Shown here: in pieces, positions 58,934 to 63,156 of the stretch
How the letters are laid out: every line of letters begins with the position of its first letter
Numbering within the stretch: position 1 is the stretch's first letter
Sequence record: PP400782
DNA length: 64,000 nucleotides
Reading direction: 5' to 3' (one strand)
DNA from: Escherichia phage FL31
Translations under genes and position numbers: made by a program
Notes under the pieces: model-generated
The model's database searches: none
Told to the model about the DNA's origin: nothing
The model's input: only the letters and a program-made list of their open reading frames with translations

Positions 58934-59593
58934 TTAACCTCGATTCATAAATGCATTAAATATTTGGTCATCAACAGAAATTTCTAATTCGACTTCAATT
59001 GCTTCAGCCTTTTCTTCAGGTGGTAATTCGTATCCACACACTACAATTTTTTCATCGATATCAAAATATACAGAAGCAATACGATTAATGTTATTTTCAG
59101 TTAAGTCCAAATCAACATCAACATCTTTTTGGCCTACACTTAGAGGATAACTAATACGGGTTATTTTATTATCTTTAACAAAGAGTCCACCAACATACTC
59201 TGTACTGCGTTTGAAGTTTACACGTTTCCGAATTGAAAGATATGATACATCTTTACCGTGAGCTCGGCTCATAGGACATAATGAATAGCTAGAATAAGAG
59301 ATGTCAAATCCTACACCTTCAATATGAGCCAACGCGTCATGATTAAACCAATTATAATCATATGCCAAATCCATTATATTGTAATATGTGAAAGGCACTG
59401 GATTAACATCATATGTTGTACCTTTAAAATCAGCCCAGGCAACGATTTCGTTATCTTTAACAATTACAAAAATTACACCAATATGGTATCCGTTATTATT
59501 TTCATTCGGCGTTATATTATAACATTGTGCATTAGGAAATTTACCATATTTAAATGGTGCGTTTTTGTGCATGTAATAAATCATATTATTCAC
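58934..59593 (-). CDS. hypothetical protein (219 aa)
   Basis: ORF track. Confidence 0.5.
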   Translation of the reverse strand: MNNMIYYMHKNAPFKYGKFPNAQCYNITPNENNNGYHIGVIFVIVKDNEIVAWADFKGTTYDVNPVPFTYYNIMDLAYDYNWFNHDALAHIEGVGFDISYSSYSLCPMSRAHGKDVSYLSIRKRVNFKRSTEYVGGLFVKDNKITRISYPLSVGQKDVDVDLDLTENNINRIASVYFDIDEKIVVCGYELPPEEKAEAIEVELEISVDDQIFNAFMNRG

Positions 59594-59879
59594 CTGTGAT
59601 TTCGGTTACGATATCTTTGTTATCGAAATTAGGGTCACAATACAAAACATAGTTGTACTGCATAATACCGCCAGACTTAAGTTGTTCAACAACTTTATTA
59701 ACCATGTTAGGACGGTCTCGTTTAGTGATGTTCATGATATCAGAGAAGATTTGTTGTTCAACCTCTTCTTGATTTGCAGTCATTGACCACTCACAGAGGT
59801 CTTTATCATAACCTGCCGTAACTGGAGCCGGTGCACATGATACTGCAAGTAAGATTGCTGCCAATGATAACTTTTTCAT
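59586..59879 (-). CDS. sp: spackle periplasmic protein Sp (superinfection exclusion / lysozyme inhibitor)
   Basis: 97 aa; signal peptide MKKLSLAAILLAVSCA then GYDKDLCEWSMTA...GGIMQYNYVLYCDPNFDNK matches T4 Sp. Confidence 0.82.
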   Translation of the reverse strand: MKKLSLAAILLAVSCAPAPVTAGYDKDLCEWSMTANQEEVEQQIFSDIMNITKRDRPNMVNKVVEQLKSGGIMQYNYVLYCDPNFDNKDIVTEITGE

Positions 59880-59899
59880 TTTAACTCCTTAGTTGATTT

Positions 59900-59938
59900 G
59901 ATAGGACTACTATACTATAGTCCATCTATAATGTAAAC
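59900..59938 (-). promoter_or_regulatory. early-type promoter (GTTTAC ... TATAGT) upstream of sp
   Basis: Minus-strand read; inverted repeat GGACTAT/ATAGTCC around -10. Confidence 0.5.
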
Positions 59939-59942
59939 AAGT

Positions 59943-60191
59943 TTATTCTTTTTCGCGAATAATAATTACTTGTTGAGGCTGCTGAGCCGATTTCTTTTCG
60001 GCAACGATAGACCAAATTAAAGTTCCAATCCAACCAACCATCGTCCAGTTAAAGAGTAAAGATACAAAGAAGATTGCTGTTGTGCTTTTTGTGCCACGAA
60101 TAAGTGCGATTACCCAAGGCAACATGTAAATGATGATTGAACCAATACCTGCGATTAAAACTGCTACTGAACTAGCTACGAATAATTCCAT
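59943..60191 (-). CDS. small integral membrane protein (82 aa)
   Basis: Two predicted TM segments (VAVLIAGIGSIIIYMLPWVIALI, IFFVSLLFNWTMVGWIGTLIWSIV). Confidence 0.5.
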   Translation of the reverse strand: MELFVASSVAVLIAGIGSIIIYMLPWVIALIRGTKSTTAIFFVSLLFNWTMVGWIGTLIWSIVAEKKSAQQPQQVIIIREKE

Positions 60192-60252: not shown

Positions 60253-60621
60253 TTAATTAAATTTGTTTAAACGTTCAATACACTGGACGTAGTTATTCGC
60301 GATTTGTTTCTGGGTAGGCTCTTTACCAGTTGTTTCAACATAGCGAATGAATGCGATTTCAGTGGCCTGTAGACAATGTTCTTTAACGCGTTGTTCTTTT
60401 GACAATGCTACAGTATCAGAGTCACGATAACGTTGAGCATGGGCATCAGCTTGAATCATTCGATTACCTACAGTAACCGGGTCTTCCACTTCAACTTTAG
60501 GTTGGTCATACTGTTTAACATTCGGATTGTAAATTAATTGGCCAACGTTATTAGGGATAAAGCCATGGGCACCACATCCGGTTAATCCAAATACCATTGC
60601 TAAAGCGATTAATTTTTTCAT
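60253..60621 (-). CDS. putative lipoprotein (122 aa)
   Basis: Signal peptide with lipobox MKKLIALAMVFGLTGC. Confidence 0.5.
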   Translation of the reverse strand: MKKLIALAMVFGLTGCGAHGFIPNNVGQLIYNPNVKQYDQPKVEVEDPVTVGNRMIQADAHAQRYRDSDTVALSKEQRVKEHCLQATEIAFIRYVETTGKEPTQKQIANNYVQCIERLNKFN

Positions 60622-60639
60622 TTCAATTTCCTCTGTAGT

Positions 60640-60679
60640 TGATAGAAAGATAGTAACACAGTATGTGGTGCTTGTAAAC
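60640..60679 (-). promoter_or_regulatory. early-type promoter (GTTTAC ... TACTAT)
   Basis: Minus-strand read; between dmd and lipoprotein gene. Confidence 0.45.
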
Positions 60680-60692
60680 AGTTATTTTAAAA

Positions 60693-60881
60693 TTATTGAA
60701 AACCTGCTTCGAAAACTTTCTCGTCATTAATAAATGCTTTAACTAATGCTTTGTTCACTTCAGCAAGTTGTACCGTAACCCACTCGATTTCTTCGCGATC
60801 ACCTGATAACATGATATCTTTAGTGAACATCTCACCGCTTTTAAACCAACCGATAAAAGTAACTTTAGTTAATTTGCTCAT
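60693..60881 (-). CDS. dmd: Dmd antitoxin (inhibitor of host RnlA/LsoA RNases)
   Basis: MSKLTKVTFIGWFKSGEMFTKDIM...EVNKALVKAFINDEKV matches T4 Dmd; ATG overlaps upstream stop (ATGA). Confidence 0.75.
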   Translation of the reverse strand: MSKLTKVTFIGWFKSGEMFTKDIMLSGDREEIEWVTVQLAEVNKALVKAFINDEKVFEAGFQ

Positions 60882-61195
60882 ATTTCCTCGCAAAATGCCC
60901 ATTCAGCGTGATAAACTGTAGCGCCTTTAGTATCATTCATTTGAACTACATCTACCGGAGAAATTACTCGATAGAGACGTGGTTCACCTCCATAAGAGCG
61001 TGCTGCTCGTCCTGCATAAATCTTTGCTAAACCGATATCTTCAGTAAAGAATACACGATCCAAGTTTTTCTTACGTCCAGTTTCAGACAGAACTCCTGTT
61101 TCTTCAGGAGGACAAAGCATGTTTTCGATGTTAGCTGAACTACTTGAACCGTGATAAAAAATCTTAAATTCTGCTTTACAATCGATGGTTTTCAT
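60878..61195 (-). CDS. hypothetical protein (105 aa) translationally coupled to dmd
   Basis: ORF track; contains FYHGSSS followed by Tyr/Arg-rich segment; promoter 61209-61249 upstream; no T4 counterpart recalled here. Confidence 0.5.
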   Translation of the reverse strand: MKTIDCKAEFKIFYHGSSSSANIENMLCPPEETGVLSETGRKKNLDRVFFTEDIGLAKIYAGRAARSYGGEPRLYRVISPVDVVQMNDTKGATVYHAEWAFCEEI

Positions 61196-61208
61196 TTTGT
61201 TCTCCAGT

Positions 61209-61249
61209 AGTTGATAGGTCTATAATAACACAACTACTGGAGAAGTAAA
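61209..61249 (-). promoter_or_regulatory. early-type promoter (GTTTAC ... TATTAT) for the 105-aa ORF/dmd pair
   Basis: Minus-strand read; 9-bp inverted repeat CCAGTAGTT/AACTACTGG, downstream arm overlapping the SD. Confidence 0.5.
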
Positions 61250-61250
61250 C

Positions 61251-61625
61251 TTAAAAACGTAATTTAGATACATCTGCGTTGATTTCGGTTTGGTTTGCGT
61301 CGTATGCAATTAAACGAACCGCTTTAGATGGGTCATTCAATGCATAGAAATGATGGAACATTGCTCGAACGATATCACCATTTACGAGTTCTACCTGGAT
61401 AGGAGAACCTTTTTCGAGTTGGAAATGTTCATAAGCTTTGATGGTTCGCAGATAATCAAGTTTTTGATTTCCGGCTCCAACAATTTGTACGATACGTTTG
61501 CCCATGTTTTCCATACGAGATACAATAGTTTTAGGAGCAAGAATAACGTAGGTTGCCAGCGGAGAAACTACTTCAACAGTTGTGTTTTCGGTGATTGCAG
61601 TAAAAATTGCTTGAGACATATTCAT
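61251..61625 (-). CDS. hypothetical protein (124 aa)
   Basis: ORF track; own promoter 61645-61684; no T4 counterpart recalled between dmd and 41. Confidence 0.5.
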   Translation of the reverse strand: MNMSQAIFTAITENTTVEVVSPLATYVILAPKTIVSRMENMGKRIVQIVGAGNQKLDYLRTIKAYEHFQLEKGSPIQVELVNGDIVRAMFHHFYALNDPSKAVRLIAYDANQTEINADVSKLRF

Positions 61626-61644
61626 AATGTTTTCCTCTTGGTTT

Positions 61645-61684
61645 GTGTAAGTACATCATATCATGCCTAGAGGAAGATGTAAAC
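61645..61684 (-). promoter_or_regulatory. early-type promoter (GTTTAC ... TATGAT) for the 124-aa ORF
   Basis: Minus-strand read; directly downstream of gene 41 terminator. Confidence 0.45.
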
Positions 61685-61688
61685 CCCG

Positions 61689-61710
61689 AAAGGAGACCGA
61701 AGTCTCCTTT
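61689..61710. terminator. hairpin after gene 41, potentially bidirectional
   Basis: AAAGGAGAC-loop-GUCUCCUUU; U tract follows on plus strand, UUUCGGGG on minus strand. Confidence 0.55.
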
Positions 61711-61713
61711 TTA

Positions 61714-63156
61714 TTAAAATTTTAACTCATTGGCTAAGCTATCTAGGTCAGCACGTGTTGCTTTGGCTTTACCTACGCGTTCCGTACGATTCACCTCTGC
61801 CTGACGCATCTGAGCACCTGCGTTTTCATTTACTGTGTTAGGTGTGTTCATGCCTTCTTGCTCAATCTCAACCCATTTCTGGTTGCCTTTACGTACACCC
61901 ATCAGGAATTTATTCCACTTATTCTTATCACCATATCGTGATTTGATTTGTTTGATAAGTTGTTGTTCAGCTTGTGCAAGTTCTTCGGTTTCAATTACAG
62001 CCAACATGAAATCTGCCGTTGCTGGTAAACCTGCTGATTCTGCGATATCACTCATGTTCATGTCTGAAGCATCCCATGCTGCACGTCCTACTTGAGCTGC
62101 AGTCCATAGAACTGTTTCAGATTCTACTGCTAATGCACGAAGTTCTTCTGCGATAGCTTTAACTAATGTGTAGCTATTTTCAGTGTAAACTCTGATACGA
62201 CAAGACCCACAAATACCTAAGTAATCAACCATGATTACAGATGGCACAAAGTTCTTCTTAAGTTTTAACTCATTAAGCAATGCACGAAATGTATTAGCGT
62301 TAGCTCCACCAGTAGGATACTGTTTAACTACTAAACGTCCTAATGTTGTTTTTGAACGCCATTTTTCCATCTTGGCTTTATATTCAGCATAAGATACGTT
62401 ACCATCATCGATATCATCGAGTGATACGTCAAGCATGTTTGCATCTATACGCTTAGCACAAACTTCTTCAGCCATTTCCATGGAAATATAAAGAACATTA
62501 TGACCTGTTTGAAGATAATCTGCAGCAAGTGAACAAAGGCCTAAAGATTTACCGACGTTAACACCGGCCATTAAAACGTTTAGTGTACCTGTTTCAGCAC
62601 CACCTTTAGTGATTTTATTCAAAATGTTTAATTTGAACGGGACCTTACGTGCTTTATTTAGATAAGAAAGCCAGCGTGCTTCGTAGTCTTCCATCCAGTC
62701 ATGTCCAACATAACTATCGAACGAAATTGAAAGTGCTTGACGCATAATATCAGGAATAGCTCCTACGTCAGGCATTTTCTTGTTACGTTGTTCTGGAGGT
62801 AGTTCAGCATTAGACTGAATCTCAATGATTTTGGACGTAGCATTATACATCGCTTTTTGCTGGACATATTTCTCAGTTTCTTTAACCAACCATTCGTGGT
62901 CTTCAGGAGTATCAGCCAATTTTTCAATTAGGTCTGAAGTTCCTTTATATTCGGCTTCAGTTAAAGAACTGTTATCTAAAGCCACCTTTAACGCATTGAT
63001 AGATGGCATTGCATTATATTCGTTAACGTGGCTCTTTATAATTTTAAAGACATTTTTTGCCGGTCCACGCTCAAAATACTCAGAATCCATATAAGGCCAG
63101 ACCTTAGAAAAATAAGCCTGGTCATATACTAGATGAGACAAAATAATTTCTACCAC
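61714..63156 (-). CDS. 41: replicative DNA helicase gp41 (DnaB-like)
   Basis: 480 aa; Walker A GVNVGKS, DnaB-family helicase blocks. Confidence 0.9.
   Translation of the reverse strand: MVEIILSHLVYDQAYFSKVWPYMDSEYFERGPAKNVFKIIKSHVNEYNAMPSINALKVALDNSSLTEAEYKGTSDLIEKLADTPEDHEWLVKETEKYVQQKAMYNATSKIIEIQSNAELPPEQRNKKMPDVGAIPDIMRQALSISFDSYVGHDWMEDYEARWLSYLNKARKVPFKLNILNKITKGGAETGTLNVLMAGVNVGKSLGLCSLAADYLQTGHNVLYISMEMAEEVCAKRIDANMLDVSLDDIDDGNVSYAEYKAKMEKWRSKTTLGRLVVKQYPTGGANANTFRALLNELKLKKNFVPSVIMVDYLGICGSCRIRVYTENSYTLVKAIAEELRALAVESETVLWTAAQVGRAAWDASDMNMSDIAESAGLPATADFMLAVIETEELAQAEQQLIKQIKSRYGDKNKWNKFLMGVRKGNQKWVEIEQEGMNTPNTVNENAGAQMRQAEVNRTERVGKAKATRADLDSLANELKF

Follow-up and report, generated by a model that had tools for sequence, protein, structure and literature searches.

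A candidate Arr-like ADP-ribosyltransferase encoded upstream of dmd in Escherichia phage FL31

Introduction

Two open reading frames (ORFs), encoding proteins of 105 and 124 amino acids (aa) and referred to here as ORF105 and ORF124, lie between the helicase gene 41 and the antitoxin gene dmd of Escherichia phage FL31, and the stop codon of ORF105 overlaps the start codon of dmd. The locus raises the question of what ORF105 does and whether its tight junction with dmd reflects a joint function. The stretch analyzed comprises 64,000 nucleotides (nt) of sequence record PP400782 and is termed the window; all coordinates are window positions. The window phage is a Mosigvirus (RB69/JS98/HX01-type T-even phage). 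The reading favored here, with somewhat better than an even chance of being correct, is that ORF105 encodes an early ADP-ribosyltransferase (ART) that uses nicotinamide adenine dinucleotide (NAD+) to modify a conserved target, and that its link with dmd is a shared transcription unit. The features on which the argument depends are the following.

60878-61195, minus strand: ORF105, a 105-aa single-domain protein of predicted Arr-like ADP-ribosyltransferase fold (phrog_2110)
60693-60881, minus strand: dmd, 62 aa, antitoxin against the RNase toxins RnlA and LsoA (Pfam PF17587, phrog_2102)
60878-60881, minus strand: ATGA stop/start overlap of ORF105 and dmd, in the sequence GAG GAA ATA TGA / ATG AGC

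The product of dmd scores 73.4 bits against the Pfam Dmd model (PF17587; cut-off 27, E 1.8e-20), above the gathering score, and the Shine-Dalgarno sequence of dmd, GAGG, is formed by codons E103-E104 of ORF105. An earlier note on this DNA had placed both ORFs between dmd and gene 41 and had joined the ORF105 stop to the dmd start; both points hold, coordinates included.

Homology and Predicted Fold of ORF105

ORF105 matches phrog_2110 at 3e-60. A profile of its close homologs (A1) has no match among PDB sequences. The broadened family profile (A2, 53 sequences) matches, among 177,635 PDB sequences, only the rifampin ADP-ribosyltransferases Arr (2hw2/9iaf, E 2.3e-4) and Arr-2 (E 5e-3). The alignment spans residues 13-82 of the 143 residues of Arr. 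It places H15 of ORF105 on the histidine of the Arr HGT motif, the E38-x-G-R41 loop on E-x-G-R of Arr, and F49 on the tyrosine of Arr strand 2, IY(I/F)(T/S). The earlier note had guessed an ART-like fold from the segment FYHGSSS, and in this it was right. The Pfam model Arr-ms is matched individually by 23 of the 53 family members, the best at E 1e-8 and some with more than 25 bits, with coverage of Pfam positions 1-67 of 99. Three relatives (P0127, P0131, and P0151) exceed the Arr-ms gathering score in the same region as the family domain, and two of these (P0127 and P0131) also match NCBIfam rifampin_ARR at about 1e-5.

The predicted structure of ORF105 contains the split β-sheet core of the ART fold, and the family carries the NAD+-contacting histidine of strand 1 within an H-G-[ST] motif. 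ORF105 itself falls below the thresholds of the Arr family models (PF12120 and NF033144); at 105 aa, it does not encompass a full-length Arr domain with its C-terminal part, nor does it display the two-lobe architecture of Tpt1/KptA, with an N-terminal RNA-binding lobe. On these sequence and model comparisons, ORF105 belongs to the ART superfamily as a distant relative of Arr and is a member of neither the Arr nor the Tpt1 family. The HX01 ortholog is already annotated as “ADP-ribosyl transferase” in RefSeq.

Residue conservation was computed over 219 sequences (98 distant relatives and 121 close ones). H15 and G16 are kept in all 98 distant relatives and in 118-119 of the 121 close ones, E38 and Y60 are invariant, R41, F49, and T51 are at least 97% conserved, and A57, G69, G70, and G91 are nearly invariant. 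Positions 87 and 88 (N87 and D88) vary, with N/S/D/Q/H at the former and D/K/N/A/P at the latter. E103 is invariant in Straboviridae only, where its codon contributes to the Shine-Dalgarno sequence of the next gene.

The domain also occurs in other contexts. A profile search of 1.84 billion representative proteins returned 222 clusters, many of them domains within very large proteins. In these large relatives (up to 3,900 aa), the family domain is fused to portal, ART-PolyVal, NUDIX, 2H/Acb1-like, GNAT, and Toprim domains; the large multi-domain relatives are injected polyvalent proteins of phages.

Distribution of the Family

The ORF105 family was found by tblastn in 609 phage records across Straboviridae, with hosts that include Escherichia (215), Klebsiella (116), Acinetobacter (68), and Aeromonas (62) as well as Enterobacter, Cronobacter, Vibrio, and others. 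Identity to the window ORF105 remains at 60-70% across the phages of E. coli, Acinetobacter, Aeromonas, and Vibrio, more than is usual for a small accessory protein. ORF124, in turn, is present in 134 phage records. Because both ORFs have phrog matches (3e-60 for ORF105, 3e-85 for ORF124) and recur in this many records, they are taken to be real genes and not chance ORFs; the lack of conservation that the earlier note had named as a possible refutation was not encountered.

The family is absent from T4-type phages, both among the 609 tblastn records and at the RB51 locus. In RB51, dmd directly follows gene 41 with a spacer of 58 nt, which bears out the arrangement that the earlier note had ascribed to T4. 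Outside Mosigvirus, the ART gene of most Tevenvirinae stands directly after gene 41. Because the ART gene is family-wide and missing from Tequatrovirus, it is T4 that lacks a family-wide gene and not the FL31 locus that has been expanded by ORF105. The description of an expanded dmd locus is therefore not supported: for ORF105 the direction is the reverse, and ORF124 alone is an insertion.

Cellular homologs accompanied by an antidote gene were sought in 185,579 cellular genomes, from which the family is almost absent. The scan gave four ORF105-family loci: one T4-like phage genome (Flagellimonas), one locus beside a transposase in a metagenome-assembled genome of the candidate phyla radiation, and two tiny contigs. 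The first of these (L074; NZ_JBHSCL010000010.1, 178 kb, “Flagellimonas marina”) shows gene-for-gene synteny with Klebsiella phage Roth27, the common genes being those for a deoxyribonucleotidase, phrog_7439, the ART, an Srd-like sigma-70 decoy, RNA ligase 2, and a DprA-like protein. By this synteny, it is evidently a T4-like phage genome inside a bacterial assembly.

A Predicted Early Transcription Unit Shared with dmd

Two elements lie directly before ORF105.

61222-61249, minus strand: putative early-type promoter of ORF105-dmd, TTTACT-16-TATTAT with TG (consensus scan)
61200-61244, minus strand: perfect 14-bp hairpin (RNA fold -25 kcal/mol, z = -6.2)

The earlier note had overlooked this promoter (61249-61222). 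An early-type promoter of the form GTTTAC...TAtTAT precedes the ART gene in every ortholog and lineage examined. The consensus scan detected no promoter-like site between ORF105 and dmd, and dmd therefore depends on upstream promoters. The two genes accordingly have the layout of a co-transcribed overlapping pair. The junction between ART gene and dmd is ATGA in Mosigvirus and TAAATG in the Dhakavirus and Gaprivervirus types. A junction of one of these two kinds is present in most orthologous ART loci, independent of the identity of the downstream gene, so that the junction emphasized in the earlier note recurs in related phages while the downstream gene varies.

The 14-bp hairpin has a 5′ arm that begins at the -35 box, a loop that holds the -10 box, and a 3′ arm that contains the Shine-Dalgarno sequence GGAG of ORF105. 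None of 200 shuffled sequences folds as well, and HX01 retains the hairpin via a G-U change. In read-through RNA from the promoter of ORF124, the hairpin would hide the ribosome-binding site of the ART gene, while RNA begun at the ART gene's own promoter, inside the hairpin loop, would leave it free. A promoter placed within a hairpin that occludes a ribosome-binding site is a design known for the T4 genes e, soc, and I-TevI, and the Mosigvirus hairpin looks like this design. Conservation of the hairpin across genera was considered and rejected: only a 5-bp TCTCC/GGAGA core is kept, there are no compensatory changes, and shuffled sequences fold equally well. Because other genera keep just this core and show no covariation, the hairpin is claimed for Mosigvirus only.

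Evidence Against the Proposed Reading

Several points weigh against ORF105 being an active ART that is tied to dmd by transcription. No experimental paper on the family was found in the literature. ORF105 alone gives no match in Pfam, NCBIfam, PADLOC, or PDB sequences (Pfam/NCBIfam E <= 1 or 0.1), and a Foldseek search of its model against the PDB returned nothing significant, the top match being Tpt1 at E 0.18. The second motif position of the family is Phe instead of Tyr or His (Phe in 217 sequences and Tyr in 2), so that aromatic character is retained and the hydroxyl is lost relative to the Arr tyrosine; Y60 sits 11 residues on. The third catalytic position, where strand 5 begins, shows no conserved acidic or Gln residue over the 219 sequences. 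Because of these two departures from the classical motif, catalysis is not assured. An ART gene and dmd that occur at one locus are always immediate neighbors with a tight junction (12 of 12 loci and also L069). Finally, Iyer et al. (2022, PMC9503650) report that Klebsiella phages carry a second, Mod-like ART family beside Dmd.

The Published Proposal of a Dedicated Toxin-Antitoxin Pair

The ART-Dmd gene pair is not new, having already appeared in print as a prediction. Iyer, Burroughs, Anantharaman, and Aravind (2022, PMC9503650, section 3.7.1) describe “p0068-family ART + Dmd” as a predicted type II toxin-antitoxin system in T-even phages of Escherichia, Shigella, and Salmonella and speculate on RNA targets for the ART. 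Judged by the description in that paper, ORF105-dmd is almost certainly this pair, and the ORF105 family very probably corresponds to the “p0068-like” family. KVP40.0068 was considered as the origin of the name “p0068” and rejected, as the protein is unrelated.

In the published proposal, the ART would modify RNA or protein, and Dmd would bind and restrain it, in addition to or instead of inhibiting RnlA and LsoA. For the locus studied here, this proposal is considered improbable. It is favored by the toxin-then-antitoxin gene order, the 4-nt overlap, the single promoter, and the invariable adjacency of the two genes, as well as by the reported occurrence of Dmd beside a Mod-like ART in Klebsiella phages. 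The comparative data argue against it. Of the 66 ART loci for which flanks were available, 12 have a Dmd-like gene immediately after the ART gene; all 12 come from related Tevenvirinae, and common inheritance of the gene order could account for the adjacency. The 797 Dmd records come nearly all from phages of Escherichia, Shigella, Yersinia, and Salmonella, mostly of T4 type, and their host distribution is largely non-overlapping with that of the 609 ART records. Over half of the ART records derive from hosts in whose phages Dmd is not detected, and the bulk of the phages with Dmd (Tequatrovirus) lack the ART. The first 50 kb of Klebsiella phage Roth27, including the region after gene 41, contain no Dmd-like ORF.

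The gene that follows the ART gene is also exchanged. In Klebsiella-type phages, the dmd slot is occupied by a membrane protein of 55-58 aa, likewise with an ATGA overlap; elsewhere, it holds Cys-rich acidic proteins of 41-46 aa, lipoproteins, unrelated proteins, or nothing. Where Dmd is present, it varies more than the ART. Two Dhakavirus-type loci from IMG/VR (L007 and L008) encode ARTs that are 100% identical beside Dmd proteins that are 56% identical (MSESIKVKFVGHF... vs MYKLENVVFIGWF...), which suggests cassette-like exchange of dmd alleles behind an unchanged ART gene. Across genera, identity is 85-90% for the ART and only 44-68% for Dmd. The consistent co-occurrence and co-evolution of a type II toxin-antitoxin pair are therefore not seen in these loci and records, and the pattern fits a variable slot behind a conserved early gene, unlike a dedicated pair. 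A functional ART-Dmd link is weakened by these data rather than excluded, because adjacency is invariable whenever both genes are present. The earlier note had taken coupling to dmd as the mark of a counter-defence gene. The comparison does not support this: the ART is mostly found without Dmd, Dmd mostly without the ART, the slot gene is unconserved, and Dmd alleles are exchanged beside an unchanged ART.

Two further observations concern the neighbors of the ART gene. The acidic 41-46 aa proteins in the dmd slot of four loci (L014, L019, L020, and L021) contain two CxxC-like pairs, e.g., MEEFECVVCGCS...ATCLDCD..., and may be zinc-ribbon mini-proteins. In 14 of the 66 loci, a protein of 250-300 aa (phrog_7439/phrog_7204) is encoded immediately upstream of the ART gene, e.g., at L002:1593-2468 and L004:1680-2441. 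This protein occurs in Klebsiella, Enterobacter, RB43-type, and Aeromonas phages, has no Pfam match and no homolog in the window, and may be a more conserved neighbor of the ART gene than Dmd.

The Nature of the Target and the Catalytic Question

Modification of a small molecule, as performed by Arr on rifamycins, is likewise improbable. In such a case, ORF105 would inactivate a diffusible antibiotic that blocks the host RNA polymerase needed by the phage, or else a small-molecule immune signal or toxin. The rifampin ARTs are the only sequence-level relatives with solved structures, “rifampin ADP-ribosyl transferase” is already the name of the family gene in some phage records, and the idea was raised by Iyer et al. 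(PMC9503650) for genuine phage Arr proteins. The same authors, however, keep the family distinct from Arr. Furthermore, with alignment confined to Arr 13-82 and a length of 105 aa against about 140, ORF105 lacks the C-terminal part of Arr, and the relatives score about 26 bits against NCBIfam rifampin_ARR, for which the cut-off is 130 bits.

A protein that keeps the ART fold and does not transfer ADP-ribose is held to be slightly less probable still. It could be a binder or sponge for NAD+ or an ADP-ribose derivative, an NADase, or a protein-binding inhibitor. The unconserved third catalytic residue and the replacement of Tyr by Phe are what such a protein might show. In contrast, H-G-[ST], the F49...Y60 pair, and the E38-x-G-R41 loop shared with Arr are kept over the 219 sequences, which fits a preserved active site. 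Activity is also known from ARTs that lack the acidic residue, among them the Tpt1 H-H-h clade and the H-Y-I PARPs.

Similarly unlikely is that the family forms a phage-specific class of minimal ARTs acting on nucleic-acid ends or on a conserved RNA-handling protein and, together with Dmd, protects phage mRNA from host RNase toxins in coliphages. This suggestion draws on the Tpt1-like model and on the invariant basic loop E-x-G-R-K-K-N.

The proposal of the earlier note, that both ORFs are dedicated counter-defence factors acting with Dmd, for example as AcrIF11 ADP-ribosylates Cas8f, is held to be improbable as well: an identity of 60-70% in phages of such different hosts is not what rapidly evolving anti-defence genes tailored to one host would show, no tie to any defence system was found in PADLOC or otherwise, and ORF124 yields no signal.

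ORF124 and the Neighboring Genes

Upstream of the ORF105 promoter, the locus comprises the following features.

61251-61625, minus strand: ORF124, 124 aa, lineage-restricted early orphan (phrog_10668)
61655-61683, minus strand: putative early-type promoter of ORF124, TTTACA-17-TATGAT with extended TG (consensus scan)
61692-61707, minus strand: terminator-like hairpin after gene 41, GGAGAC-TTCG-GTCTCC plus a T-rich tract (read from the sequence)
61714-63156, minus strand: gene 41, helicase

All 134 phage records with ORF124 are Mosigvirus-like, and in every case the gene lies between gene 41 and the ART gene. Outlying relatives were found in a metagenomic contig (51% identity) and in Gaprivervirus TH54 (36%), and only two clusters were retrieved among 5.8 billion proteins. 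ORF124 has no Pfam, NCBIfam, PADLOC, or PDB match, and it does not resemble the proteins of 250-300 aa encoded ahead of the ART gene in other phages; its AlphaFold2 model, built on an alignment with three usable sequences, has a pLDDT (predicted local distance difference test) of 35 and is unusable. By its distribution and position, ORF124 is a real, conserved early orphan gene restricted to Mosigvirus and the sole insertion at the locus.

The early promoter that the earlier note had assigned to ORF124 is recovered as a sigma-70/T4-early-type site just after the gene 41 terminator hairpin, with 10 of 12 consensus positions matched; it is a consensus match only. A GC-rich hairpin with a T-run likewise stands before the ART promoter in related phages.

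The minus-strand genes run in the order uvsX, gene 40, gene 41, ORF124, ORF105, dmd, the gene for a DUF5481 lipoprotein, imm, and spackle. Over bases 60600-61750, the window shares 99.6% identity with Escherichia phage AV118 and 95% or more with about 140 further records. The stretch shortly downstream of dmd (59586-60191, minus strand) holds the neighboring genes imm (59943-60191) and spackle (59586-59879); three superinfection/anti-toxin functions are therefore clustered between genes 41 and 61. HX01 (L001 4008-4220) and some other Mosigviruses have an additional 70-aa ORF between dmd and the lipoprotein gene, where the window contains only a 71-nt spacer with a promoter (60622-60692). RefSeq names this ORF “DNA polymerase” and the lipoprotein “iduronate sulfatase” in HX01; both look mis-annotated.

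Further downstream, the window encodes a gp61.2-like ORF (58934-59593, minus strand), which we take to be AdfA, the anti-DarT factor of LeRoux et al. If the third in-frame Met is the translation start, residue 164 is Arg. Arg at this position is the RB69-type allele, reported as inactive against DarT1 (PMC11825919).

Proposed Function and Significance

On the favored reading, ORF105 would be a minimal single-domain ART of the Arr-like branch of the H-Y-[EDQ] clade. Transcription of its gene would start at a T4-type early promoter of its own during the first minutes of infection, giving one mRNA shared with dmd. NAD+ would most likely be bound via H15-G-S, F49, and Y60, with a probable contribution from the E38-x-G-R41 loop, and ADP-ribose would then be transferred to a highly conserved target in the infected cell. 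ORF105 would be the stand-alone counterpart of Arr-like domains that reach the cell within injected polyvalent and portal-fused proteins of other phages. Its link with dmd would consist of joint early transcription in a variable slot, perhaps with translational coupling, and co-transcription would serve gene packing.

Should ORF105 prove enzymatically active, it would be a fourth early ADP-ribosyltransferase, hitherto unstudied, in T4-like phages apart from T4, and of a clade unlike that of Alt, ModA, and ModB; the same ART domain is injected by other phages inside polyvalent proteins. The gene escaped sixty years of T4 genetics because T4 lacks it. Its target, once found, would add a new host-takeover or counter-defence reaction and would also settle the published prediction of Dmd as an antidote. 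The interest of the family rests on its being widespread and easy to test, and ORF105 is directly testable in RB69 and in the Mosigviruses of the BASEL collection.

Comparison with Known Systems

Arr (PF12120; PDB 2HW2, 9IAF, and 9IBA) has about 140 aa compared with the 105 of ORF105. Tyr49 of Arr is Phe in ORF105, and the position of Arr Asp84 is unconserved in the ORF105 family. Arr acts on rifamycins. ORF105 itself stays below the Pfam and NCBIfam thresholds.

Tpt1/KptA has an N-terminal RNA-binding lobe that carries most of the R-H-R-R catalytic tetrad. ORF105 lacks this lobe and has no sequence-level match to Tpt1/KptA. AcrIF11 (PDB 6KYF), an anti-CRISPR ART of phages and plasmids, has no sequence similarity to ORF105, and, unlike AcrIF11, the ORF105 family is kept regardless of the defence repertoire of the host. 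With respect to the p0068 ART + Dmd pair of Iyer et al., the comparative data obtained here do not display the co-occurrence expected of a dedicated pair.

As a predicted early ART, ORF105 also resembles Alt, ModA, and ModB of T4, the early or injected ARTs with which T4-like phages reprogram host proteins. These enzymes are larger and belong to the R-S-E clade, whereas ORF105, which T4 lacks, would belong to the H-Y-type clade.
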